The notes under the pieces: model-generated
Seen by the model: only the letters and a program-made list of their open reading frames with translations
Told to the model about the DNA's origin: nothing
Databases searched by the model: none
Source of the DNA: an uncultured Candidatus Saccharibacteria bacterium
Lineage (GTDB): Bacteria > Patescibacteriota > Minisyncoccia > Phycocordibacterales > UBA9973
Direction: 5' to 3'
Assembly (NCBI GenBank): GCA_964532495.1
Contig: CAZHJZ010000006.1
Coordinates: 1-53,487 of the forward strand
DNA length: 53,487 bases
Part shown: piece by piece, positions 729 through 32,605 of the stretch
Position numbering within the stretch: position 1 is the first letter of the stretch
Layout of the letters: every line of letters starts with the position of its first letter
Made by a program: the position numbers and the translations under genes

Positions 729-1142
729 ATGTATTTTATGAAAGACATATATCTTACTTCAACTTTTACTAATCCATGGAATGTTGCTTTTAATCCTGTG
801 ATCGGCGAAGCTCTAGAAAAGAAAGGATTCACTTGTTATTTGCCTCATCGGGATACTAATCAACAAGCTTCACTAGAGGAGAAATTTGAAAGCAATATGG
901 TTGCAATGCGGAACGCTTCAATTATCTTAGCAATTGCTATGAATGAAAGCCCTAATTTTGGAGCAGAAGTTGGTTACATGCATGGAATTGGAAGACCAAT
1001 TATTGCGCTCACCAGTAATGAGCATGCGATTCCTTTAATGTGTGACAAAATGATGCAAGCAGTGATTCGTGTAGAAAATCTAGATGATGTGGAATCATAT
1101 ATTGATTCACTAGCTGAAAAATTGCGAGCCGTTCTTGGTTAG
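729..1142 (+). CDS. Nucleoside 2-deoxyribosyltransferase-like protein
   Basis: 137-aa ORF. The pattern IYL..(N-terminal strand)...GF.CYLPHRD...ASIILAI...NFGAEVGYMHGIGRPIIAL resembles the NDT-family fold and its acidic-residue/Gly-rich motif. The start could be 729 or 738. Confidence 0.5.
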   Translation: MYFMKDIYLTSTFTNPWNVAFNPVIGEALEKKGFTCYLPHRDTNQQASLEEKFESNMVAMRNASIILAIAMNESPNFGAEVGYMHGIGRPIIALTSNEHAIPLMCDKMMQAVIRVENLDDVESYIDSLAEKLRAVLG

Positions 1143-1762
1143 TGATTGTGCTGCTCAGTTTTGAATACGTGTGTATCTTCCGGTCCTGAGTCTTCGGAAA
1201 GCAGCAATAGTTCCGAGTTTCCGAAATGAAACATCATCAGTACATCTTTCCAGTCTAGATTGTAATACGCAGCGTAGAGCATCTTGCCGAAGTCGCCGTG
1301 TGTGGCGAGGAGCACTGATCCATCCGGATGCAGTGCTTTTACTTTTGCCAATACTTTTTTCGCACGCTCGATCATATCAGGAAATGTTTCCGCGCCTTCC
1401 ATTTCTAAAAAATAGGTGATGAGTTGAGGTGTTTTGAGAATGTTAGGCGAACAGAGCTCAGGAATGTCTTTGATCAATTTACCGGTCATGACGCCGAAAT
1501 TTCGTTCGATCAGTTCATTCCAAACAGTTGGTTTCTCCAATCCCAAGGCATCAGCAACCGCTTCGCCGGTTGTGTAAACGCGAGACAGGGGAGAACTATA
1601 TACTTTGTCAAAAGTAATACCGCTTTCCTTGATGTGTTTCGCCAATTGCTGAGCCTGGGATATTCCAAGTTCAGTCAGTGGTGTATCACGGTGGCCGTTT
1701 AAAATACCGGCTGCGTTGTCGCAGTCTTGGCCGTGCCGAGTGAGGTATATTTCGAGAGACAT
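1139..1762 (-). CDS. Histidine phosphatase family protein (phosphoglycerate-mutase-like)
   Basis: Motifs LTRHGQ (RHG), SSPLSRVYTTGE and LATHGDF. 207 aa. Overlaps the stop of the convergent 729..1142 gene by 4 nt. Confidence 0.85.
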   Translation of the reverse strand: MSLEIYLTRHGQDCDNAAGILNGHRDTPLTELGISQAQQLAKHIKESGITFDKVYSSPLSRVYTTGEAVADALGLEKPTVWNELIERNFGVMTGKLIKDIPELCSPNILKTPQLITYFLEMEGAETFPDMIERAKKVLAKVKALHPDGSVLLATHGDFGKMLYAAYYNLDWKDVLMMFHFGNSELLLLSEDSGPEDTHVFKTEQHNH

Positions 1763-22930: not shown

Positions 22931-23626
22931 ATGAAAAAGAAGGGAACATTCATCGTTATTGACGGCACTGACGGGAGCGGAAAGGCAACACAGGTTGACC
23001 TGCTCTTGAAGCGCCTCAAAAAAGAAGGAAAGACAGTAAAGGTTGTGGATTTTCCTGATTACTACAAAAATTTCTTCGGCGCGTTTATCGGCCACTGCTT
23101 AACTGAGCAGTACTACAATTTCTCACACCTGCACCCTAAGATCGCCTCGGTTCTTTATGCAGCGGATCGATGGGAATCATCAGAAGAAATTAAGGGCTGG
23201 CTTCAAAAAGGATACATTGTTCTTGCGAACAGGTATGTGTCCGCAAACCAAATTCACCAAGGCGGAAAAATTACTGATTCAAAAAAAAGAAAAGATTTCC
23301 TCAAATGGCTTGATCAGATGGAATACGGCGTTTTTAAAATTCCAAAGCCCGATGTCGTTCTCTATCTTTCTGTCCCGCTCGCAGTTTCTCAGAAGCTTAT
23401 GAAGGAACGCGATAAGCAGTCTTCTCGAACCTACAAAGGAAAAAAGAAAGATGTGCACGAGGGAGATCCTGTCCATCTTGAGAATGCCCGAACAAGCGCG
23501 CTGAAGCTTGTAAAAGAACTGAATAATTTCGTAAAGATAGACTGTGCGCCAAAAGGCGAATTGCTTTCCCGCGAAACTATTCACGAGCAAGTATATGCTC
23601 AGGCAAAAATGATCATAAAAAAGTAA
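22931..23626 (+). CDS. tmk: Thymidylate kinase
   Basis: P-loop FIVIDGTDGSGKATQ, DRW/DRY-type motif AADRW, and a lid region. Confidence 0.85.
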   Translation: MKKKGTFIVIDGTDGSGKATQVDLLLKRLKKEGKTVKVVDFPDYYKNFFGAFIGHCLTEQYYNFSHLHPKIASVLYAADRWESSEEIKGWLQKGYIVLANRYVSANQIHQGGKITDSKKRKDFLKWLDQMEYGVFKIPKPDVVLYLSVPLAVSQKLMKERDKQSSRTYKGKKKDVHEGDPVHLENARTSALKLVKELNNFVKIDCAPKGELLSRETIHEQVYAQAKMIIKK

Positions 23627-23684
23627 AAAACTGCCTCGTTTGACGAATGTCTCTTTTGTGGTATGGTAAAGAAAAGACCTTACT

Positions 23685-24617
23685 ATGAAAAACAAAATAA
23701 CGTATACGCCAATTTTTGTTGGCCTCACTGCGAGCGGGTATGATGTTAATGGAGTGAAGGAGGAATTAGCACTTGAGATAATTAAAGCGCAACATATCGT
23801 TGAAAAAATTGCATCGTATTACCAGCTCACCTTTGAAGAAGTTGTTAAGTCCGGACGAAAGGGAGCTATCGGTGTTGCTCGGAGAGCAGCTATCTATAGA
23901 ATCATATACGAGACTAAGTTGAGCAAAGTTGCAATCGGCTCTTTATTTATTGGAGAAAGCAAGAAAGAAAAGGTGCCTGCCAGGGTTTCTGGCATGAGTC
24001 ACGCAACAGTGAGCGACATACAGAAAAAGATCAATCTCGCAAAGAAACTGCTGGTTCGGCAAGAACGGCTTCGCCCAAAACTGTTAGCGATACTGCAATT
24101 GATCAAACAGACAGGGACTGAAGACTCAAATGGTGGCATGCCTGAAGTTATTGATTTGGAAAGTACTCCGCAGCATACTGGCAACAAAAAAATAACCAAA
24201 GAGCTTATGGTGCCTTTCTTATCCAATCACATCAAAGAGCCACAAGGGATTGAGGTATTGAAAAATATTGGAGGCATCGAAGTATTGCAGGCAATACAGG
24301 AAGTCAGTGCTCTTACGGAAAAGGAGCTTTTAGAAATTGGAGAAGGCAATCCGCACAGGGAATACCACCAGATTTTGATTGCTTGTATAAAAAGCAGATT
24401 CCGCCATTTTCCCTTAGAGAAATATGCTGAAATGTTTACTATTGTTTCTAAAGAAGTAGCTCACTATACTGTTGAAGACATAACTGAGTTTTTGGTAAAC
24501 CATGAGCAGAAAATGACTTTTGGGAAACTGCCAATGCTCGAGTATGCAACGCACGAACCATATCGGAAATTGGTTCAAAAAATCGAAGCTACAGTTTTGA
24601 GAAACATGAAATTTTGA
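23685..24617 (+). CDS. Protein with a DnaA domain-IV-like helix-turn-helix (no AAA+ module)
   Basis: IVEKIASYYQLTFEEVVKSGRKGAIGVARRAAIYRIIYETKLSKVAIGSLF...GMSHATVSDIQKKI parallels the DnaA C-terminal DNA-binding domain (R..i..aRq.amyl...t..s...IG..f...dHtTV.ha..ki). Confidence 0.55.
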   Translation: MKNKITYTPIFVGLTASGYDVNGVKEELALEIIKAQHIVEKIASYYQLTFEEVVKSGRKGAIGVARRAAIYRIIYETKLSKVAIGSLFIGESKKEKVPARVSGMSHATVSDIQKKINLAKKLLVRQERLRPKLLAILQLIKQTGTEDSNGGMPEVIDLESTPQHTGNKKITKELMVPFLSNHIKEPQGIEVLKNIGGIEVLQAIQEVSALTEKELLEIGEGNPHREYHQILIACIKSRFRHFPLEKYAEMFTIVSKEVAHYTVEDITEFLVNHEQKMTFGKLPMLEYATHEPYRKLVQKIEATVLRNMKF

Positions 24618-24638
24618 TTTATATATTATACAGTTACT

Positions 24639-24667
24639 ACTCCCCAAAACAGCGGGGAGTTTTTTTA
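24639..24667 (+). terminator. Intrinsic terminator
   Basis: Stem actcccc/ggggagt, then T7. Confidence 0.8.
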
Positions 24668-24678
24668 TTGCCATTTTT

Positions 24679-24687
24679 TGCTACAAT
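24679..24687 (+). promoter_or_regulatory. Extended -10 promoter element TGCTACAAT for dut-argS
   Basis: TGC plus TACAAT (24682..24687). No good -35. Only 9 nt to the dut ATG. Confidence 0.45.
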
Positions 24688-24696
24688 GCACTCACT

Positions 24697-25119
24697 ATGC
24701 AGATCAGAGCGAAGCGGTTGAAGCCAGAAGCTATTATGCCCAAATACGCGCACCCAGGCGATGTTGGCCTGGATCTTTACGCTGTCGAGACTGTTACTAT
24801 TCCTCCAGGCGGGCATTACCGCTTGTGGCATGGCTTTGCGTTAGAGTTTCCAATAGGCTATGCAGCAACTGTGAAGGATAAATCAAGCATTTCTAAAGCA
24901 GGCCTGCATACCATGGGAGGTGTTTTTGATGCCGGATACCGCGGAGAATATAATACGCATCTCGTAAATCTCAGCACTGAGCCATATACGATAGAGGCGG
25001 GCGACAAAGTGTCCCAGTTGGTCATTTTCCCTGTAGCGATTGCAGAAATCGAAGAAACTGATACATTAAGTGAATCCAGCCGTGGCGAAGGAGCCTTCGG
25101 TTCGACGGGAAAGAAATAA
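24697..25119 (+). CDS. dut: dUTP diphosphatase
   Basis: PKYAHPGDVGLDLYA, GVFDAGYRGE, and the C-terminal SSRGEGAFGSTG motif. Confidence 0.9.
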   Translation: MQIRAKRLKPEAIMPKYAHPGDVGLDLYAVETVTIPPGGHYRLWHGFALEFPIGYAATVKDKSSISKAGLHTMGGVFDAGYRGEYNTHLVNLSTEPYTIEAGDKVSQLVIFPVAIAEIEETDTLSESSRGEGAFGSTGKK

Positions 25120-26832
25120 ATGAAAGAAAAACTCGAAGAGAACATCAAGCAAGCCCTCTCCAATCTCGGCATCTCCGTCGAGGCTGTTTCCATTGAGCAT
25201 CCAGCAGATATTAAAAACGGCGACTATTCTACGAATACCGCCCTTGCCGTTTCAAAGCAAGCTGGCAAAAGCCCTCGTGAAATAGCTGAACTTCTTGTTA
25301 CTGAACTTTCAAAAAATCCAATTGCGGAAATAGCAGCAATTGAGATCGCTGGTCCAGGGTTTATTAATTTCCGATTGACCAAAGAATTCTTTTCAAAAAG
25401 CGTGGCAGAAATTTCAAGCCTTGCTTCGATATGGGGAACTAATACAATCGCGGAAGGCAAAAAAGTAATGGTTGAATATACCGACCCAAACCCGTTTAAG
25501 CCTTTTCATATCGGACATCTCATGACGAATGCTATTGGCGAATCCATTGCTCGCATCCATGGTGCATCGGGCGTGCACGTTGTTCGCGCAAACTATCAGG
25601 GCGATGTTGGCCTCCATGTTGCCAAGTCTATCTGGATGATTCTGAAGAAAGGGAAAGGCGATACAAGCGTTTCAGTCGGAGCACAAGCACAATATATTGG
25701 CGCGTGTTATGCCGAGGCTTCTAGTGCATATGACGAAGATGCAACTGCAAAAGCGGAAATCGATGCTATCAACAAAAAAGTGTATGAACGAAGCGACGCA
25801 GATGTTAACGAAATATATGATTGGGGAAGAAAGGTAACCCTCGAAGCATTTGAAGAAATTTACAAAACGCTTGGGACAAAATTCAACCACTACTTTTTTG
25901 AAAGCGAGATGGCTCCAATCGGTGCTGCTATCGTCAGAGAAAACACAGGCAACGTGTTTGAGGAATCAGATGGTGCCATTGTTTTTCATGCTGAAAATTA
26001 CAACCCAAAACTGCACACTCGAGTGTTCATAACGAAGCAAGGTTTGCCAACATATGAGACAAAGGAAATCGGCCTCACTACTAAAAAATTCGAAAAGGAA
26101 TCAAACCTAGATCTTTCAATTGTGATTACCGCTATTGAGCAAGGGGAATACATGAAAGTAGTCCAGAAGGCTATTTCGCTCATTCACCCGGAACTTGAAT
26201 CACGCATGAAGCATCTTACGCACGGCATGATGCGTTTTGCTTCAGGTAAAATGAGCTCACGAAAAGGGAATGTTATTACCGGAGAATCATTGATGAATGA
26301 CGCTCGGGAGCTTGTGCATGAAAAAATGGCTGATCGAGAATTGTCAGCAGAAGAACGAGAAACGATCGCCTCTCAAGTCGGGGTGGCTGCTTTGAAATAT
26401 TCTATTTTGAAACAATCGCTTGGAGGGGATATCATTTACGATTTTGAAAAATCAGTTTCATTTGAAGGTGATTCAGGTCCGTATCTTCAGTACACTGCAG
26501 TTCGCGCGAATGCGGTGCTAGAAAAGGGGAAACAAGCAGGACTTGTTCCTGATGCCGCTTTGCCTGAAACATGGCAAACAACCGGACTCGAAAAACATTT
26601 GTACCGTTTCCCTGAAGTGGTGATGCATGCGTATACCTTGCTTGAACCGCACCATATCGCCACCTATCTCACGGAATTGGCTTCGCTTTTTAACTCATTG
26701 TATGGTGAACACCAGATCGTAAACAAAGAAGATTCGGCCTCTCCATACAAGATGGCAATTACCCAGGCATTTGTCATTACAATGAAAAACGGCTTGAATT
26801 TACTGGGCATTTCAGTGCCTGAAAAGATGTAG
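25120..26832 (+). CDS. argS: Arginyl-tRNA synthetase
   Basis: PNPFKPFHIGHLM (HIGH), the MSSRKGN region, a DALR-type C-terminus ending in M. Starts immediately after the dut stop. Confidence 0.92.
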   Translation: MKEKLEENIKQALSNLGISVEAVSIEHPADIKNGDYSTNTALAVSKQAGKSPREIAELLVTELSKNPIAEIAAIEIAGPGFINFRLTKEFFSKSVAEISSLASIWGTNTIAEGKKVMVEYTDPNPFKPFHIGHLMTNAIGESIARIHGASGVHVVRANYQGDVGLHVAKSIWMILKKGKGDTSVSVGAQAQYIGACYAEASSAYDEDATAKAEIDAINKKVYERSDADVNEIYDWGRKVTLEAFEEIYKTLGTKFNHYFFESEMAPIGAAIVRENTGNVFEESDGAIVFHAENYNPKLHTRVFITKQGLPTYETKEIGLTTKKFEKESNLDLSIVITAIEQGEYMKVVQKAISLIHPELESRMKHLTHGMMRFASGKMSSRKGNVITGESLMNDARELVHEKMADRELSAEERETIASQVGVAALKYSILKQSLGGDIIYDFEKSVSFEGDSGPYLQYTAVRANAVLEKGKQAGLVPDAALPETWQTTGLEKHLYRFPEVVMHAYTLLEPHHIATYLTELASLFNSLYGEHQIVNKEDSASPYKMAITQAFVITMKNGLNLLGISVPEKM

Positions 26833-26860
26833 TTGACAAAACGTTTTGATGCTGTACTAT
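26833..26860 (+). promoter_or_regulatory. Candidate promoter TTGACA-N16-TACTAT
   Basis: Hexamers at 26833..26838 and 26855..26860. Confidence 0.45.
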
Positions 26861-26928
26861 AGAGTAAACCTACGGCCATTCTATTTTTTCACAGGTTCCT
26901 AAGCGAACTTTAAAACCTACATAGCCAC

Positions 26929-27183
26929 ATGAGACCGATTACACCAGTTTTTGCCAGCGATGTTAAACTCGCAAAGCCTTTTTCATTTTCAAACGAGTTA
27001 TTAGAACTAGCAGCCGGTGCCCCCGATCTGAGAGTTTTAAAAAAGTTTATTGATGTTATACAACTTTCCAAAATCCCTAAAAGCTACAAATTATTTACTC
27101 GTGTTTTTGAAAACGGTAAAATAGTATCTAAGGCATTACCGGTAGAACACTTTTTAATGTTAGCCAACATTATACAAAGTTAA
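26929..27183 (+). CDS. Hypothetical small protein
   Basis: 84-aa ORF flanked by a promoter and a terminator. No motif. Confidence 0.4.
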   Translation: MRPITPVFASDVKLAKPFSFSNELLELAAGAPDLRVLKKFIDVIQLSKIPKSYKLFTRVFENGKIVSKALPVEHFLMLANIIQS

Positions 27184-27250
27184 TTACCTGCCGTGCGGTC
27201 CTCGCACATTTCTCTTACGTGGCATCCTGCCGCGCTTCTATATAGCCAGT

Positions 27251-27282
27251 CCCATCCACTATCTGTGGGTGGGCATTTTTTT
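27251..27282 (+). terminator. Intrinsic terminator (plus strand)
   Basis: Stem cccatccac/gtgggtggg, then T7. Confidence 0.7.
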
Positions 27283-27286
27283 ATCT

Positions 27287-27317
27287 AAAAAAACAAGCTA
27301 TACATATGTATAGCTTG
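27287..27317 (-). terminator. 24-bp perfect palindrome (27294..27317) that reads as an intrinsic terminator on the minus strand (followed there by T7)
   Basis: caagctatacat|atgtatagcttg preceded on the plus strand by A7. Lies tail-to-tail with the plus-strand terminator at 27251..27282. Confidence 0.5.
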
Positions 27318-27403
27318 AGGAGAGATGGGGAATAGGGAGTAAGGATAGATAATAGAATAAGAGAGGAGGGAAAAGAAATGTATGGGTTAGAGGTGTAGTT
27401 TAA
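27315..27403 (+). other. 89-nt cytosine-free, roughly 79 percent purine tract
   Basis: Direct count gives no C between 27315 and 27403. There are 10 GGA motifs between 27315 and 27560. No ORF of 60 aa or more on either strand. Confidence 0.9.
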
Positions 27404-27562
27404 CGGATTAATTGATGGCGAGCTAAAAGGGGTACGTTAATGGGGCACTACAGGGATACATTTCAAGAAATTCTATTAAAGTATGCTTAGGTCGGTATTC
27501 CGATATATGAGTACTCGAACTGGTCGAGAGAACTGTCTGTGAAAGGACTGAGGATTACTTTA

Positions 27563-27584
27563 TTTATATCATATATGATATAAA
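27563..27584. repeat. 22-nt perfect AT-rich palindrome (tttatatcat at atgatataaa)
   Basis: Read directly. Followed by aaatgcacaaata. Related to the repeat at 27633..27658. Confidence 0.85.
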
Positions 27585-27632
27585 ATGCACAAATAAAGCT
27601 GTGGATAACTCTAAAATAGCTAATAAATCAAG

Positions 27633-27658
27633 TTTATATATCATACTTGATATATAAA
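27633..27658. repeat. 11-bp inverted repeat (tttatatatca / tgatatataaa, 4-nt loop), a second copy of the 27563 element
   Basis: Read directly. Followed by aaatggtgcaaata, which parallels the tail of the first copy. Confidence 0.85.
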
Positions 27659-27690
27659 ATGGTGCAAATACCACATTGAACCAAGAAGCC

Positions 27691-27719
27691 TTTACAAACC
27701 AAGTCTTTTTAAGTACTAT
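27691..27719 (+). promoter_or_regulatory. Candidate promoter TTTACA-N17-TACTAT for the ileS T-box leader
   Basis: Hexamers at 27691..27696 and 27714..27719. The predicted start is near 27726, just before GCGATGA. Confidence 0.5.
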
Positions 27720-27725
27720 TTCAAT

Positions 27726-27934
27726 ATAAGCGATGACGAGGCCATCACCTCTGAGCTCCGGAAAGAACATCTCGAAAGAGATCAGTAGATTCTGGCGGGT
27801 AAGCCCGTTAGCGCAGTAATAAGATGCCTTGAGAATATTCTCTCGGCGAAATAAGGTGGTACCGCGAGGGTCAGCAAGAAACTCGTCCTTATACAAGAAT
27901 TTATTTTATTGTATAAGGACGGGTTTTTATATTT
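27726..27934 (+). promoter_or_regulatory. T-box riboswitch leader with terminator/antiterminator, upstream of ileS
   Basis: T-box core AAGGTGGTACCGCG at 27853..27866. Antiterminator geometry is AAGG / bulge TGGTACC / CGCGAG...CTCG-T-CCTT. Terminator is cgtccttatacaa/ttgtataaggacg plus T5 (27884..27927). The 5' GCGATGA is a K-turn-like start. A CCGTTA (F-box-like) and two AGTA motifs are present. Confidence 0.85.
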
Positions 27935-30900
27935 ATGGATACTCAAAACACCAACAACAAATCTGAGGCTGCACTTCGCGAAGAGCGAGTGATGGCTTTT
28001 TGGAAGCAGAACAATACGTTTCAAAAATCTCTCAGCAAGGAATCGCCGAAAGGGAATTATGTTTTTTATGACGGTCCGCCGTTTGCTACTGGAGTGCCGC
28101 ACTACGGACACATTCTCGGCTCCACTGCTAAAGACGTTATTGGCCGCTACAAAACTATGCAGGGATTCAATGTCCCTCGAAAGTGGGGATGGGATTGTCA
28201 TGGTTTGCCGATTGAGAACATCGTTGAAAAAGACCTTGGCATTTCAGGGCACGTTGAAATTGAAAACTTCGGCGTAGAAAAATTCGTCGAGCATGCTCGA
28301 AGTAAAGTTCTTACTTATGTTTCTGAATGGAAAAAAACAGTTGATCGTATGGGTCGCTGGGTCAATTTCGACGGATCGTACAAGACCATGGATAACACAT
28401 TCATCGAGTCTGTCTGGTGGGCGCTGGGAGAATTGCATAAAAAAGGTTTGATATATGAAGGCGTGCGCGTGCTTGCGTACTGTCCTCGCTGCGAAACTCC
28501 GATCGCCAAGTCTGAAATTGCCATGGATAATTCCTACAAGGATATTTCTGATATTTCAGTGTACGTAAAGTTCGAGCTTGTTGATGAGCCAGGAACATTT
28601 TTGATTGCATGGACGACGACACCATGGTCATTGCCGGGAGATACTGCCGTTGCTATCAATGCCGAGGCGATATATATAAAAGCAAAAATTGAAACTGAAT
28701 TTTTCATCGTTGCAAAAGATCGCGCGGAAACTGTATTTAAGGATAAGGCATATGAAGTTGTAGAAGAATTTCCCGGCTCGCATCTTGTCGGTAAAAAATA
28801 TCTTCCGCCGTTTGATTACTACGCAAATAGCGAAGCCATCCTTTCCAACCCAAAATCTTGGACTGTTGTTGCGGCTGACTTTGTCACCACAACAGACGGT
28901 ACCGGTATCGCTCACGAAGCTCCGGCTTTTGGTGAAGACGATGCCAACCTCGCTAAAAAAGAAAATCTTCCGTACATCATCCACGTTACACCAGAAGGAA
29001 AGTTTGCGCCTGAAGTTACTGATTTTGCCGGCATGCCGATCAAGCCGAAATCATCTGAAAAAGACGGACATATGGTTGCCGATATCGAGATCATCAAATA
29101 CCTTGCTGCGAAGAATCTCCTTTTCAAAAAAGAAAAGATAGTGCACTCGTACCCGCACTGCTACCGTTGCGATACGCCGCTCTTTTATTACGCACTCCCA
29201 TCATGGTTTATCAACATCCAAAACGTAAAGCCGCACTTGCTCGAAAACGCAAAAGCTATGGAGTGGATACCATCCCATCTTAAAGATGGCCGCTTCAAAC
29301 ACACAATGGAAAGCGCGCCAGACTGGAATATTTCCCGCAATCGTTACTGGGCATCACCGCTTCCAATTTGGAAATCTAAAGAAGGGAAGCTGTTGTTTGC
29401 AAATTCAATTGATGATTTGAAGGCAAAAGCAAAAAAATCTGGCAATACATACTTCGCTATGCGTCACGGCTATGGCCAGCACATGGATGCGGGCGTAATG
29501 AGCGGTCTTGATCATGATTCATATCATTTGACCGAAGACGGCAGGAAGGGAGTTCTTGCACAGGCAGAAAATCTCAAAAAAGATGGCATCACAAAAATTT
29601 TCGCATCGCCGCTGATCCGAACTCAGGAAACTGCAAAAATGGCAGCGGAGATACTTGGCGTGCCTGCGGAGTCAATCATCACTGATAACCGTTTGCGAGA
29701 ATATGATTTCGGCGAATGGGACGGAAAGCCTTGGCAGGATTATGTAAACTACCGCAAGGACCATCTTGGATCATATGATGAAAAACTTGGGGGATCATCG
29801 CTTCTTGAAACCAAGCAGCGTTTTGGTGATTTTATGTACGATCTCGAATCAAAATATCAGAACGAAAGAATCTTGATCGTTACGCACGGCATATTCTTTG
29901 AAACGGTTGCTGCTGTTGTTGCTGGAGCTGACAATAAACAATCACTTGAAATCCTCTTTACACAGTTTACTGGTAACCGTATTCAGCCAGCCGAAATCCG
30001 AAATATTCCATTTATTCCGCTTCCTCATAACGCCCGCTACGAACTAGATCTCCACCGTCCGTACATCGACGCAATCAAGCTTGTCGATGAAGACGGCGCT
30101 GAATACGAGCGCATTCCCGAAGTGATCGACTGCTGGTTTGAATCTGGCTCCATGCCGTTCGCACAAGATCACTATCCGTTTGAGAATCCAAACTGGAAAG
30201 AGAATAATTTTCCGGCTGGCTTTGTCGCTGAATATATTCCGCAGACTCGAACGTGGTTTTATTATACCCATGTTATCTCGTCAATTCTTTTCGGCCACGC
30301 GCCGTTTGAGCACGTGGTGACGACGGGAACAGTTCTCGCTGAAGACGGGCAGAAAATGTCCAAATCAAAGAATAATTTCCCTGACCCGTGGGTCTTGTTC
30401 GACAAATATGGCGTTGATCCGCTTCGCCTCTATCTGATGTCATCACCGCTTATGAAAGGAGAGGATGTGAACTTTTTGGAAAAGTCCGTCGCTGATATTG
30501 CAAGCAAAATTATCGGCCGCCTATTCAACGTTTTGTCTTTCTACGAATTATATCGAGATGTCTCTCTTGAAAAAGAAACAGTTTCTTCTGACAATGTGCT
30601 CGATATGTGGATATTGTCTCGTCTCAATCAGGTTGTCGCAGAAGTAACAAAAGGAATGGAAGCGTACGACCTGCCAGAAGCGACGCGACCGTTCGATCTT
30701 TTTGTCGACGACCTTTCTACTTGGTATCTTCGACGATCACGCGATCGCATCAAGGACGGAGATGTTGGCGCCAAGCAAACTCTCTATACGGTCTTGAAAA
30801 CAATAGCAGTGACGCTTGCTCCGTTCGCGCCATTTACTGCCGAAGAAATGTGGATGCGCTTGAAGAATGAACAAAATGAGGAAAGCGTGCATCTTGCTTT

Positions 30901-31393
30901 ATGGCTAGAGAAAACCGGCACAGCATCGGACGCAGTTCTTGAATCAATGAAGAATGTCCGCGATTATTGCGCTGCCGGCCATATGATCCGCCAGAAAGCC
31001 TCTATTCCGGTTCGCCAGCCACTCGCAACTCTATACATTCCTGAAGTTCCAGAAGCAGCATATCTTGAAATTCTCAAAGATGAATTGAATGTCAAAGCGA
31101 TTGAAAAAGGAGAAGCCGTAGTCTTTGATGAGACTATTACTCCTGAATTGAAATTGGAAGGAAATTACCGCGAGCTTGTCCGAGCAGTGCAAGATATGCG
31201 AAAGAAAGAAGGCTTGACTCCAAGTGATCGAATCAACGCCTCTCTTTCACAAGAAGCCGAAATATTGGTTGCTCCGTTCATGGATGACTTCAAGAAAACA
31301 GTGCAAGCGGATGGAGTTTCATTTACCGACACGGATGGGACTGAAATTACTGTCGGTGAAACTAAGCTCACAGTAAAAGTTGCTAAGATATAG
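27935..31393 (+). CDS. ileS: Isoleucyl-tRNA synthetase (type 2) carrying an internal histidine-phosphatase-like domain insertion
   Basis: PHYGHIL (HIGH), GWDCHGLPIE, WNISRNRYWASPLPIW, DLHRPYID, WFESGSMPF, and KMSKSKNN (KMSKS). At 1152 aa it is longer than I recall for type-2 IleRS. Confidence 0.95.
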   Translation: MDTQNTNNKSEAALREERVMAFWKQNNTFQKSLSKESPKGNYVFYDGPPFATGVPHYGHILGSTAKDVIGRYKTMQGFNVPRKWGWDCHGLPIENIVEKDLGISGHVEIENFGVEKFVEHARSKVLTYVSEWKKTVDRMGRWVNFDGSYKTMDNTFIESVWWALGELHKKGLIYEGVRVLAYCPRCETPIAKSEIAMDNSYKDISDISVYVKFELVDEPGTFLIAWTTTPWSLPGDTAVAINAEAIYIKAKIETEFFIVAKDRAETVFKDKAYEVVEEFPGSHLVGKKYLPPFDYYANSEAILSNPKSWTVVAADFVTTTDGTGIAHEAPAFGEDDANLAKKENLPYIIHVTPEGKFAPEVTDFAGMPIKPKSSEKDGHMVADIEIIKYLAAKNLLFKKEKIVHSYPHCYRCDTPLFYYALPSWFINIQNVKPHLLENAKAMEWIPSHLKDGRFKHTMESAPDWNISRNRYWASPLPIWKSKEGKLLFANSIDDLKAKAKKSGNTYFAMRHGYGQHMDAGVMSGLDHDSYHLTEDGRKGVLAQAENLKKDGITKIFASPLIRTQETAKMAAEILGVPAESIITDNRLREYDFGEWDGKPWQDYVNYRKDHLGSYDEKLGGSSLLETKQRFGDFMYDLESKYQNERILIVTHGIFFETVAAVVAGADNKQSLEILFTQFTGNRIQPAEIRNIPFIPLPHNARYELDLHRPYIDAIKLVDEDGAEYERIPEVIDCWFESGSMPFAQDHYPFENPNWKENNFPAGFVAEYIPQTRTWFYYTHVISSILFGHAPFEHVVTTGTVLAEDGQKMSKSKNNFPDPWVLFDKYGVDPLRLYLMSSPLMKGEDVNFLEKSVADIASKIIGRLFNVLSFYELYRDVSLEKETVSSDNVLDMWILSRLNQVVAEVTKGMEAYDLPEATRPFDLFVDDLSTWYLRRSRDRIKDGDVGAKQTLYTVLKTIAVTLAPFAPFTAEEMWMRLKNEQNEESVHLALWLEKTGTASDAVLESMKNVRDYCAAGHMIRQKASIPVRQPLATLYIPEVPEAAYLEILKDELNVKAIEKGEAVVFDETITPELKLEGNYRELVRAVQDMRKKEGLTPSDRINASLSQEAEILVAPFMDDFKKTVQADGVSFTDTDGTEITVGETKLTVKVAKI
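29432..30040 (+). other. In-frame histidine phosphatase (PGAM-like) domain inserted in IleRS (about residues 500-702)
   Basis: FAMRHGYGQH (RHG), ASPLIRTQETA, REYDFGEWDGK, and LIVTHGIF. Flanked by the IleRS blocks PLPIW... and ...DLHRPYID. Confidence 0.8.
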
Positions 31394-31399
31394 ATATAT

Positions 31400-32605
31400 A
31401 TGCCACTCGAGAAAGTACTAAAACTATTTCAGCCGAAGAGCGTTGAAGAACATGAGCGAATAGTAGATACGCAGATGCTATCGCTTCAGCTAAAGTACGC
31501 CGATCGAGTGTTTTCTGGCGAGATACCCGTTCTCGGAAGTGAAAGAAAGAGTGGGAAGGGTTTCGCAACTCTTATGCTTGAAAGTTCTTCGATCCTCCAC
31601 TACGCTTCAAAGCTATTGCGAGAAAAAGCTAACTACGACAATAAAGAAATACGAGATACCTTAGGGCAAATAATAATGCTCGAGGCATATCAAATTCACA
31701 GAGACCATGCTCCTGATTGGATAGATAGAATTCAGAAAATGATTATTGATGTTACCGATGAGGAGGCAAAAAAGATAAATGAAAAGATCAATACGCGAAT
31801 CAAACCGCAAGAAGACATGAAGAGTGAGATTGGGTTGCTGAATTATGCGACCAATCATGATCCCGAAGAGATTACCGCTATGGGATTGGATCCCAAAGAT
31901 GATTATGTTTCTGTTCATTTTGAGGCGCTGTATAAGCAGCGAGCAAAGGGAGAAGTATCGCTTACAATTGAAGAATCACTTGAAAAATTAGCAGTCGTTA
32001 TCCTTGAACAATATCCGCAAACACGCGCAGTGATTGCTCATTCATGGCTGGTAGAATCTCACTATGCGGCAGCGCTTGGATTGCAAAATATCAAGCGAGA
32101 TTACTCTCCGAATTGGACACTCTCTTTTTGGGGTCAATTCTTAAATAAAAAGGGTGAGATCAATCAGGAGCGAGCGGCAAAGTTCTTGGAGACTGGTGTT
32201 CCAGAGTACTATGTTTCTTACGGTTCTGTGCCCATTGTTGATTTTCTTAAAAAATATTTGCCGCAAGAAAAGAAAGGCTCTGTTGTTCTAAAAGAAATCC
32301 GTCCTGGTTTTTACGAAAAGTTTCAGCATGATACAAAGGTCATAAAAGACATACAGGAAGAATGGGATACGATTACCCCAGAAGAGATAAAAACTCTAGT
32401 TGAAACATGCGAGGTGATTGGAGAATTTGAACAAAGTGGCAATGGTAATCAATCTGGCCATATCGCTCGTATGTTATGTGAATGGAAGGATGCAAAGTTG
32501 TCTGTACAAGAAATGGAGCATCAATTTTCTACTGATGAAAAGATTGAAGAATTTAAGAAATGGTATGAAGATTATAAATATATAAGTAAGGAATATACGA
32601 TTTAA
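31400..32605 (+). CDS. Hypothetical protein, co-transcribed with ileS
   Basis: 401-aa ORF starting 6 nt after the ileS stop. The segment VSVHFEAL...AVIAHSWLVES is faintly reminiscent of a GNAT-like acyltransferase C-terminal domain. That resemblance is not secure. Confidence 0.55.
   Translation: MPLEKVLKLFQPKSVEEHERIVDTQMLSLQLKYADRVFSGEIPVLGSERKSGKGFATLMLESSSILHYASKLLREKANYDNKEIRDTLGQIIMLEAYQIHRDHAPDWIDRIQKMIIDVTDEEAKKINEKINTRIKPQEDMKSEIGLLNYATNHDPEEITAMGLDPKDDYVSVHFEALYKQRAKGEVSLTIEESLEKLAVVILEQYPQTRAVIAHSWLVESHYAAALGLQNIKRDYSPNWTLSFWGQFLNKKGEINQERAAKFLETGVPEYYVSYGSVPIVDFLKKYLPQEKKGSVVLKEIRPGFYEKFQHDTKVIKDIQEEWDTITPEEIKTLVETCEVIGEFEQSGNGNQSGHIARMLCEWKDAKLSVQEMEHQFSTDEKIEEFKKWYEDYKYISKEYTI

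Follow-up and report, generated by a model that had tools for sequence, protein, structure and literature searches.

In this study, we analysed a stretch of 53,487 nucleotides (hereafter the window) from an uncultured bacterium recorded as Candidatus Saccharibacteria (GenBank assembly GCA_964532495.1, contig CAZHJZ010000006.1), and observed that its ileS gene, encoding an isoleucyl-tRNA synthetase (IleRS) of type 2, harbors a complete branch-1 histidine phosphatase (HP) in frame within the synthetase body. Our favoured reading, to which as a whole we give a probability of about 0.75, is that the protein is a type-2 IleRS with a nested HP that is probably active, and that the coupling of such phosphatases to IleRS or valyl-tRNA synthetase (ValRS) has probably been selected, as judged from sequence comparison and structure modelling. 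An earlier sequence-only reading of this DNA had proposed a complete HP resembling phosphoglycerate mutase (PGAM) inside this 1152-amino-acid (aa) IleRS, and both the uninterrupted frame and the profile match reported below bear this out.

The synthetase and its nested phosphatase

The open reading frame (ORF) at 27935..31393 on the + strand runs uninterrupted for 1152 aa and scores 833.6 bits with TIGR00392, the isoleucine--tRNA ligase equivalog model (cutoff 621.4), in two stretches with a break at about aa 506, while the valS, leuS and metG models all remain under their own cutoffs. Pfam detects tRNA-synt_1, Anticodon_1 (aa 890-1031) and DUF5915 (aa 1057-1151), with His_Phos_1 lying between both halves of tRNA-synt_1. 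The best match among solved structures is IleRS2 of P. megaterium, 8c8u (phmmer E=2.8e-209), followed by 1ile (E=2.5e-185), and the top Foldseek matches are likewise the IleRS2 structures 8c8v, 8wnd and 1ile (E ~1e-77); the type-2 assignment follows from the C-terminal DUF5915 and from these best structures being IleRS2, with the type-1 structures 1ffy and 8c9e scoring far lower. The AlphaFold2 model of the full-length protein has a mean predicted local distance difference test score (pLDDT) of 87.2 and a predicted template-modelling score (pTM) of 0.75. Two special kinds of IleRS were considered and rejected, namely the IleRS with GNAT (NF040702, 320 bits against a cutoff of 1999), of which the window protein is no member, and the mupirocin-resistance enzymes MupA/MupB (NF000257/NF000258, 699/744 bits against 1900). 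For conservation analysis, a close set was formed of the 120 best homologues, with 58-81% identity, from NCBI, ENA, JGI and Logan assemblies, under the names Pacebacteria, Nomurabacteria, Paceibacterota and Patescibacteria. The features of the gene are as follows.

27935..31393, + strand: ileS, type-2 IleRS with nested phosphatase, 1152 aa (ORF, TIGR00392, Pfam, AlphaFold2, Foldseek)
27935..29380, + strand: N-terminal synthetase part, aa 1-482, first half of the catalytic fold and CP1 editing domain (query 7-482 corresponds to 8c8u chain 5-460)
28100..28111, + strand: HYGH
28610..28627, + strand: WTTTPW of the CP1 editing domain
28898..28942, + strand: GTGIAHEAPAFGEDD of the CP1 editing domain
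29324..29371, + strand: WNISRNRYWASPLPIW
29432..30010, + strand: nested branch-1 HP unit, aa ~500-692 (PF00300, AlphaFold2, Foldseek, colinear with an entire stand-alone HP of 195 aa)
29462..29467, + strand: R510-H511 of RHG, H511 being the predicted phospho-accepting nucleophile (120/120 close homologues; RH kept in all complete domains examined)
29618..29620, + strand: R562, second phosphate-binding Arg, in SPLIRTQETA (120/120 close homologues)
29699..29701, + strand: E589, predicted proton donor (Glu in 119/120, Asp in 1)
29885..29887, + strand: H651, second catalytic His, in VTHG (120/120 close homologues)
30023..31390, + strand: C-terminal synthetase part, aa 697-1152, with DLHRPYID, WFESGSMPF, KMSKS, anticodon-binding domain and DUF5915 (8c8u chain 479-848 and 936-1026)
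30353..30367, + strand: KMSKS

The synthetase motifs on both sides of the insertion are all present, among them the two (HIGH and KMSKS) that the sequence-only reading had described as intact, with HYGH (its HIGH) at aa 56-59, WTTTPW at 226-231, GTGIAHEAPAFGEDD at 322-336, WNISRNRYWASPLPIW at 464-479, DLHRPYID at 705-712, WFESGSMPF at 734-742 and KMSKS at 807-811. HxGH, KMSKS and the CP1 editing motifs (WTTTPW; GTG..H...G.DD) are invariant in 118 homologues. Judged by these motifs and profiles, the window ileS is an orthologous housekeeping type-2 IleRS with intact synthetase and editing motifs. The predicted charging of tRNA-Ile is supported indirectly, by the T-box-like leader with its AUC specifier and by synteny with insert-less ileS genes, both of which are described in the last section.

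The phosphatase sits at the tip of the hairpin between WxISRNRYWxxPxPxW and DLHRPY...WFESG, where the entry junction follows WNISRNRYWASPLPIW (ending at aa 479) and KSKEGKLLFANSIDDLKAKAKK, and the exit junction precedes LPHNARYELDLHRPYID...VDEDGAEYERIPEVIDCWFESG. In the alignment with 8c8u, query 7-482 matches chain 5-460 and query 697-1057 matches chain 479-848, leaving about 214 residues in the window protein against about 18 in 8c8u. The segment is absent from the solved type-2 structures, and nothing is inserted at the corresponding place in the solved IleRS, ValRS and leucyl-tRNA synthetase (LeuRS) structures among the Foldseek matches; the short linker that the sequence-only reading ascribed to ordinary type-2 IleRS is also seen in 43 insert-less IleRS from species-representative genomes, which have 22-45 aa there, except for two. 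The hairpin of the Thermus enzyme holds the zinc ligands Cys461/464/502/504 as CxxC and CxC, with which our 1ile alignment is consistent. These cysteines are kept in insert-less relatives, such as P0248 and the Staskawiczbacteria enzymes, and all four are gone in the window protein and 117 aligned homologues (KSKEGK... and VDEDGAEY). Residues at the junctions are strongly conserved in this site-1 family (K496, K498, K500-N504, Y506, P697-H-N and Y702-E-L-D). The nomenclature of the P. megaterium IleRS papers gives residues 513-632 as the second half of the HUP core; the insertion site precedes this half and would therefore lie in the putative CP2 region.

The inserted unit matches PF00300 (His_Phos_1) over aa 509-671 of the whole protein with E=4.1e-26 and 92.3 bits (gathering score 21.7), and when 29432..30040 is translated alone, the match reaches E=1.2e-27 and 97.3 bits. 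All the motifs quoted by the sequence-only reading were located in the order it gave, namely RHG at aa 510-512, SPLIRTQETA at 558-567, REYDFGEWDGK at 588-598 and VTHG at 649-652. The full-length AlphaFold2 model has a pLDDT of 92-97 across the insert and its linkers, and the insert modelled alone has a pLDDT of 94.8 and a pTM of 0.91. By Foldseek, the insert resembles small-molecule phosphatases of about 200 aa (4ij6, 9mmh and 1h2e) with probability 1.00, template-modelling (TM) scores of 0.77-0.79 and 17-24% identity, the nearest solved folds being PspA, the riboflavin-pathway HFP, PhoE, mycobacterial GpgP, CobC and TIGAR. Furthermore, residues 4-185 of a stand-alone Staskawiczbacteria HP align colinearly with window aa 503-689, indicating that the nested unit equals a whole free-standing enzyme. 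Profiles and modelled structure together identify the insert as a complete PF00300 branch-1 HP fold that is placed outside any characterised subfamily. The assignments tried and rejected comprise the 2,3-bisphosphoglycerate-dependent mutase dPGM (NF038349, 63-68 bits against 225; other dPGM models such as TIGR01258, 18-45 against 261-320), alpha-ribazole phosphatase CobC (TIGR03162, 63-68 against 162.9), phosphoserine phosphatase PspA (NF045917, 44-49 against 350, though 4ij5/4ij6 is the closest solved structure), phosphohistidine phosphatase SixA (TIGR00249, 27-30 against 74.5, matching only the N-terminal ~70 residues) and GpmB, which also stays under its curated cutoff. The best HP-type match in NCBIfam is PRK07238, with 71-73 bits against a cutoff of 326.

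PF00300 and the IleRS domains occur together in 120/120 of the closest homologues, and a MAFFT alignment of this set gives a mean identity to the window of 42% for the insert versus 70% for the synthetase core. We also compiled a wider set from species-representative genomes and the best 150 of 5451 matches in a search of 1.84 billion representatives, and among its approximately 170 complete HP domains the pentad reads RHREH in 157 and RHRDH in 9, with three deviants. Such residue conservation indicates that purifying selection has maintained the catalytic pentad R510/H511/R562/E589/H651 over deep divergence. The window belongs to a subclade (16/120) that has RHGYGQHM and GGSS where the others have RHGExExN and GGES; the resulting second-shell replacements in the active site, N517M and E621S, are conserved within the subclade, from which we infer a shifted pocket rather than decay. 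As for the catalytic competence that the sequence-only reading had suggested, the motifs stand, and activity is supported as a prediction by pentad conservation and the modelled fold.

Recurrence in IleRS and ValRS

The distribution of the insert was examined at 80 species-representative loci, of which 34 have an HP in IleRS and 43 have none, the remaining 3 being truncated; the two exceptions to the short linker among the 43 show partial matches to the hidden Markov model (HMM). Carriers were noticed among Nomurabacteria, Pacebacteria, Taylorbacteria, Peregrinibacteria and Peribacteria, while IleRS without HP were found in Moranibacteria, Falkowbacteria, Kaiserbacteria, Staskawiczbacteria, Magasanikbacteria, Uhrbacteria, DPANN archaea and Simkania. 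Some titles of metagenome-assembled genome records, e.g. 'Saccharibacteria', may be unreliable. The ileS loci of Peregrinibacteria and Peribacteria (L024, L025, L036, L037, L050, L051, L060 and L070) have ORFs of 1246-1487 aa, and most of them display two tandem HPs at the same hairpin, each with the full pentad. In a neighbour-joining (NJ) tree of HP domains, which has long branches and whose deep nodes were not relied on, the first copies cluster together and so do the second copies, suggesting an old duplication in these lineages; further groups of the tree are formed by the ValRS copies and the site-3 copies described below.

The hairpin tip is not the only place of insertion. In P0248, whose gene neighbour shares at least 90% identity with a protein of Abawacabacteria, site 1 is empty and its cysteines are present, and the HP lies between the LFNVLSFYELYRD-equivalent helix and LDMWILSRL, just before the anticodon-binding domain (site 2). 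P0165, of 1419 aa, has one HP after WFESGSMPYA (site 3) and a second at site 2, and its cluster consists of six members on independent contigs of up to 1.06 Mb. Another protein (P0257) carries the HP at site 1 and at the WFESG-proximal site 3, and two others (P0221 and P0219) hold two or three copies. The same domain is also found in ValRS: P0258, a full-length enzyme of this kind by its PRK05729 score (956 bits; cutoff 704), has its HP within the hairpin homologous to IleRS site 1 (...WYCRDCKEIV...MRHGQ...THGD...VKCKCGSNN...DTWFSSG). About 20 of its relatives from Falkowbacteria, Kuenenbacteria and Uhrbacteria share this arrangement, the nearest HP-less ValRS having 870-950 aa, and these hosts retain the hairpin cysteines (CxxC...CxC) despite the HP. 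A ValRS-like fragment (P0150) even contains four HP domains. The Falkowbacteria and Uhrbacteria IleRS loci L032, L054 and L074 are without HP and some ValRS of these lineages carry it, so that the HP host, IleRS or ValRS, seems by these sequences to differ by lineage. Among the best 150 of the 5451 relatives of the insert, every multi-domain host with an identifiable partner is an IleRS or a ValRS.

Stand-alone forms of the HP, of 188-200 aa, were detected in Staskawiczbacteria and relatives between argS and an insert-less ileS, all co-directional, and they score 164-166 bits on the insert HMM, level with the nested copies. The order argS-HP-ileS was seen in every looked-up stand-alone orthologue of the Staskawiczbacteria-type search (L057, L062, L083-L088 and probably the P0233 contig). 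Neighbouring genes overlap slightly or stand up to about 20 nt apart, and only in L086 is the HP gene parted from ileS by another gene, of 279 aa. For P0166, a separately found stand-alone HP, the neighbours have no recorded Pfam hits and the context is uninformative. Taken over all these loci, the sequence data demonstrate that HPs of the window type have been attached repeatedly to IleRS and ValRS, in several loops, by tandem amplification and through gene adjacency, and this recurrence points to a functional coupling of a small-molecule-type phosphomonoesterase with class Ia synthetases.

A separate observation concerns P0237, an IleRS relative of 1066 aa from a JGI metagenome, which has an HP and a C-terminal GNAT domain, and at residues 326-472, in the region of the editing domain, an in-frame RAYT/IS200-like Y1 domain (81 bits with NF047646, whose cutoff is 80; Pfam Y1_Tnp). 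This segment may represent a genuine mobile-element protein nested in the synthetase, or it may be an artefact of gene calling.

Proposed function and rival explanations

In our favoured reading, the source is a Paceibacteria-type member of the Patescibacteria or Candidate Phyla Radiation (CPR), a complete HP of about 190 aa, similar to PhoE, PspA and CobC, was inserted in frame into the hairpin tip with loss of the hairpin cysteines, and the window protein would be bifunctional. The HP would act as a metal-independent phosphomonoesterase through a phospho-His511 intermediate, and selection would favour its continued coupling, physical or stoichiometric, to IleRS or ValRS. As several insertion sites are tolerated, tethering or stoichiometry probably matters more than precise geometry or a fixed channel, to which the conserved junction residues and confidently modelled linkers of the site-1 family form a counterpoint. 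The structural neighbours in the modelled comparison favour small phosphomonoesters as substrate. Speculatively, the substrate may be a nucleotide or tRNA end that bears phosphate and is encountered in aminoacylation, for example a 2'/3'-phosphorylated or pyrophosphorylated CCA end that would be cleared before charging, or a nucleotide monophosphate by-product; among specific substrates this is the guess we prefer, tentative and rather doubtful as it is. The yeast branch-1 HPs Det1 and YOR283w release inorganic phosphate from 5'-labelled DNA, ATP and 3-phosphoglycerate (PMC2737285), indicating that nucleic-acid ends are chemically feasible for branch-1 HPs in vitro. A bolder version, which we consider unlikely, is that the nested HP would be a third catalytic site of class Ia synthetases that 'heals' the tRNA or substrate by removing a blocking 2'/3'-phosphate or pyrophosphate from the CCA end, or some other phosphorylated poison, and that it would have been hard-wired several times independently in CPR bacteria; the blocking group might be left by RNase damage or added by toxins acting on tRNA ends as kinases. 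If true, this would be a new class of synthetase-integrated quality control or repair beside editing.

Several observations weigh against the favoured reading. The insert lies under the curated cutoff of every characterised HP subfamily, and its nearest structures, as modelled, are phosphatases of metabolites rather than of RNA or proteins, so that a generic metabolic role would fit equally well. The three distant insertion loops, one of them beside the anticodon-binding domain, speak against any fixed channel leading into the synthetic or the editing site. The loss of the RHGxxxxN Asn and of the GES Glu in the window subclade could mean altered or reduced activity. Moreover, the argS-HP-ileS cluster also holds unrelated housekeeping genes (AA_kinase and recO), for which reason adjacency alone is weak evidence.

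The main rival to the guess of a tRNA-end or nucleotide substrate is a generic metabolite phosphatase, which we take as possible while leaning against it. In this explanation, a broad-specificity housekeeping enzyme of PhoE/GpmB/PspA type, acting on e.g. phosphoserine, a sugar-phosphate or a nucleotide and having no mechanistic link to aminoacylation, would have started as a neighbour in the argS-ileS cluster and become fixed in permissive surface loops, the benefit being assured co-expression where genomes are streamlined and regulators few. The metabolite phosphatases nearest to the insert in structure and profile (PspA, HFP, PhoE, GpgP, CobC and TIGAR) agree with this explanation, as do the mixed housekeeping cluster of the stand-alone form and the toleration of several unrelated sites, and P0237 with its RAYT/IS200-like segment and GNAT suggests that IleRS loops accept foreign domains. 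However, the restriction of identifiable multi-domain hosts to IleRS and ValRS among those best 150 matches speaks against it, and repeated, independent capture by two paralogous synthetases, two to four tandem copies and adjacency to ileS exceed what neutral fusion would be expected to produce. A protective protein phosphatase, reversing inhibitory phosphorylation of the synthetase or a partner by kinase toxins, appears improbable to us. HipA-type kinases phosphorylate GltX and HipT phosphorylates TrpS, and branch-1 HPs include the protein phosphatases SixA, PGAM5 and Sts-1; tandem arrays and lineage-specific hosts also resemble conflict-driven evolution. Nevertheless, the match to SixA is weak, no SixA-like structure is among the top 50 structural neighbours, and no kinase toxin gene was seen adjoining the window locus or the inspected related loci.

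We give slightly less credit still to a pseudo-enzyme or structural module, in which the HP fold would replace the lost zinc knuckle or add a surface for binding tRNA or ligand, with a pocket that only binds phosphate. The absence of the four Zn-ligand cysteines from the HP-bearing IleRS of Paceibacteria, the highly conserved junction residues and the changed N517 and E621 of the window subclade would suit it. Against this, the pentad is kept in approximately 98% of complete copies, tandem and stand-alone ones included, ValRS hosts carry the HP and yet keep their cysteines, and stand-alone orthologues exist, indicating that the fold is independent of the synthetase. The reading as an artefact or removable element, be it mis-assembly, a mis-called fusion or a spliced intein-like segment, is effectively refuted. 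Only a superficial likeness between the conserved P-H-N of the exit junction and the C-terminal end of an intein speaks in its favour; no Hint or intein Pfam domain is detected, the junctions (...KKSGN/TYF... and ...LPHN/ARYE...) are without Cys, Ser or Thr nucleophiles, the 'LP.N' stretch is native to IleRS without a site-1 insert such as P0248 (KELPRNDAGEVDLHRPY), and the HP is colinear with a free-standing protein. A chimeric assembly, a concern voiced in the sequence-only reading, is excluded in practice because all 120 closest homologues, coming from independent assemblies, have the same architecture with common frame and junctions, and the base composition over the insert (GC 0.42-0.48) is uniform with that of its flanks.

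Few enzymes are as conserved as the aminoacyl-tRNA synthetases, whose added domains have time and again brought new biology to light, including editing, signalling and complex formation. Here, a second and apparently active enzyme, as predicted from sequence and model, lies within the catalytic body of an essential synthetase. That this pairing has arisen at more than one insertion site, with two synthetases and also between adjacent genes of an operon, in a large radiation of uncultivated organisms, is a 'Rosetta stone' signal of a functional link. Should the link be tRNA or nucleotide repair, it would mean a new quality-control step in translation; should it be only co-expression, it would show extreme genome streamlining building enzymes by nested domain insertion.

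Neighbourhood, leader and known systems

Other features of the window that touch on the gene and its phosphatase are listed here.

1139..1762, - strand: stand-alone HP gene, 207 aa, distant superfamily relative of the insert (PF00300 E=7e-37; 26% identity)
25120..26832, + strand: argS, conserved upstream neighbour of ileS (Pfam Arg_tRNA_synt_N, tRNA-synt_1d, DALR_1)
27724..27893, + strand: T-box leader-like element with truncated Stem I (RF00230, 64.3 bits, gathering score 93, E=2e-13)
27884..27928, + strand: terminator-like hairpin CCUUAUACAAG...UUGUAUAAGG with U-run, read from the sequence and overlapping the 3' side of the T-box helix

The sequence-only reading had named the HP at 1139..1762 as a stand-alone paralogue; the HP gene is indeed there, yet it is not a recent paralogue, and a recent duplication was rejected as the origin of the insert on account of the low identity and a different cluster in the NJ tree, where this HP falls outside those associated with synthetases. 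It converges with 729..1142 (+), a nucleoside 2-deoxyribosyltransferase-like gene (PF05014), with an overlap of 4 nt. The genes argS and then ileS follow each other on the same strand at about 30 related loci, and the argS-ileS-recO synteny is common to the window and to insert-less orthologues. Near argS lie tmk and dut (22931..25119), which together with the deoxyribosyltransferase-like gene give the neighbourhood a nucleotide-salvage flavour. The 1.1-kb gap between argS and ileS (26833..27934) yielded no remnant of an HP gene in a six-frame hmmsearch and tblastn. Within it, the stretch of about 890 nt that separates argS from the T-box leader (26833..27723) is free of long ORFs, and so large a gap is unusual in a compact genome. 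An 84-aa ORF without Pfam hit occurs at 26929..27183 (+), with a 78-aa gene called at the same relative position in the close relatives L089 and L090. Downstream, at 7 nt from ileS, there is a 401-aa ORF without Pfam hit (31400..32605, +), where L089 and L090 have a 193-aa gene of the Ser_hydrolase family.

The RF00230 match in the leader covers the whole model (1-219), with only 6 nt standing in for 76 positions of Stem I, and its score is under the gathering threshold because most of Stem I is deleted. What remains of Stem I is GCGAUGACGAGG-CCAUCA-CCUCUGAGC, presenting the Ile codon AUC followed by A in the terminal loop, and the T-box sequence AAAUAAGGUGGUACCGCGAG is intact. The hairpin and U-run end 7 nt before the ileS ATG at 27935. 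These sequence elements support regulation of ileS by the charging of tRNA-Ile. Sherwood, Grundy and Henkin reportedly described, in 2015, ileS T-box riboswitches with an ultrashort Stem I in Actinobacteria, and we know of no T-boxes from CPR bacteria. The window leader resembles the actinobacterial ones in its T-box sequence, its GA motifs and the short terminal loop that presents an AUC-A specifier; it differs in scoring under the gathering score (64 vs 93), in belonging to a CPR genome and in apparently being followed by a terminator hairpin, whereas the actinobacterial examples sequester the ribosome-binding site.

Literature searches for a histidine phosphatase in IleRS or ValRS found no description, in agreement with the claim of the sequence-only reading that no aminoacyl-tRNA synthetase with an embedded HP had been described, and a 2026 preprint annotating 96,219 IleRS sequences and architectures does not mention the insert. 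HP-bearing IleRS and ValRS thus appear undescribed, although their sequences are public and annotated only generically. Many of them stand in NCBI records merely as 'class I tRNA ligase family protein' or 'hypothetical protein', which is relevant to annotation; the insert presumably disturbs the naming rules, and essential genes may be under-annotated in CPR genomes.

Compared with the solved type-2 IleRS (8c8u/8c8v; T. thermophilus 1ile), the window protein has the same domain order, with HxGH, CP1 editing domain, WxISRxRxW, WFxSG, KMSKS, anticodon-binding domain and ARD/DUF5915, but between 8c8u residues 460 and 479 it has about 196 extra residues forming a separate enzyme fold, and the hairpin cysteines are lost. 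With the small branch-1 HPs PhoE (1h2e/1ebb), PspA (4ij5/4ij6), HFP (9mmh) and CobC (3hjg, 6e4b), the insert shares the fold, a length of about 190-200 aa and the RHG/R/E/H set; it differs from them by its 17-24% identity, by being nested and not free-standing and, in the window subclade, by lacking the RHGxxxxN Asn. That an IleRS can enclose a second enzymatic domain has a precedent in NCBIfam NF040702 'ileS_w_GNAT', from which the window differs in having another guest domain at another position, and P0237 holds both HP and GNAT. In the RNase H/acid phosphatase PRK07238, the Rv2228c-type fusion of RNase HI and CobC, an HP resembling CobC and PhoE is likewise joined to a nucleic-acid enzyme; there, however, the two are fused end to end and the partner enzyme is a different one, whereas in the window the phosphatase is nested within its host.

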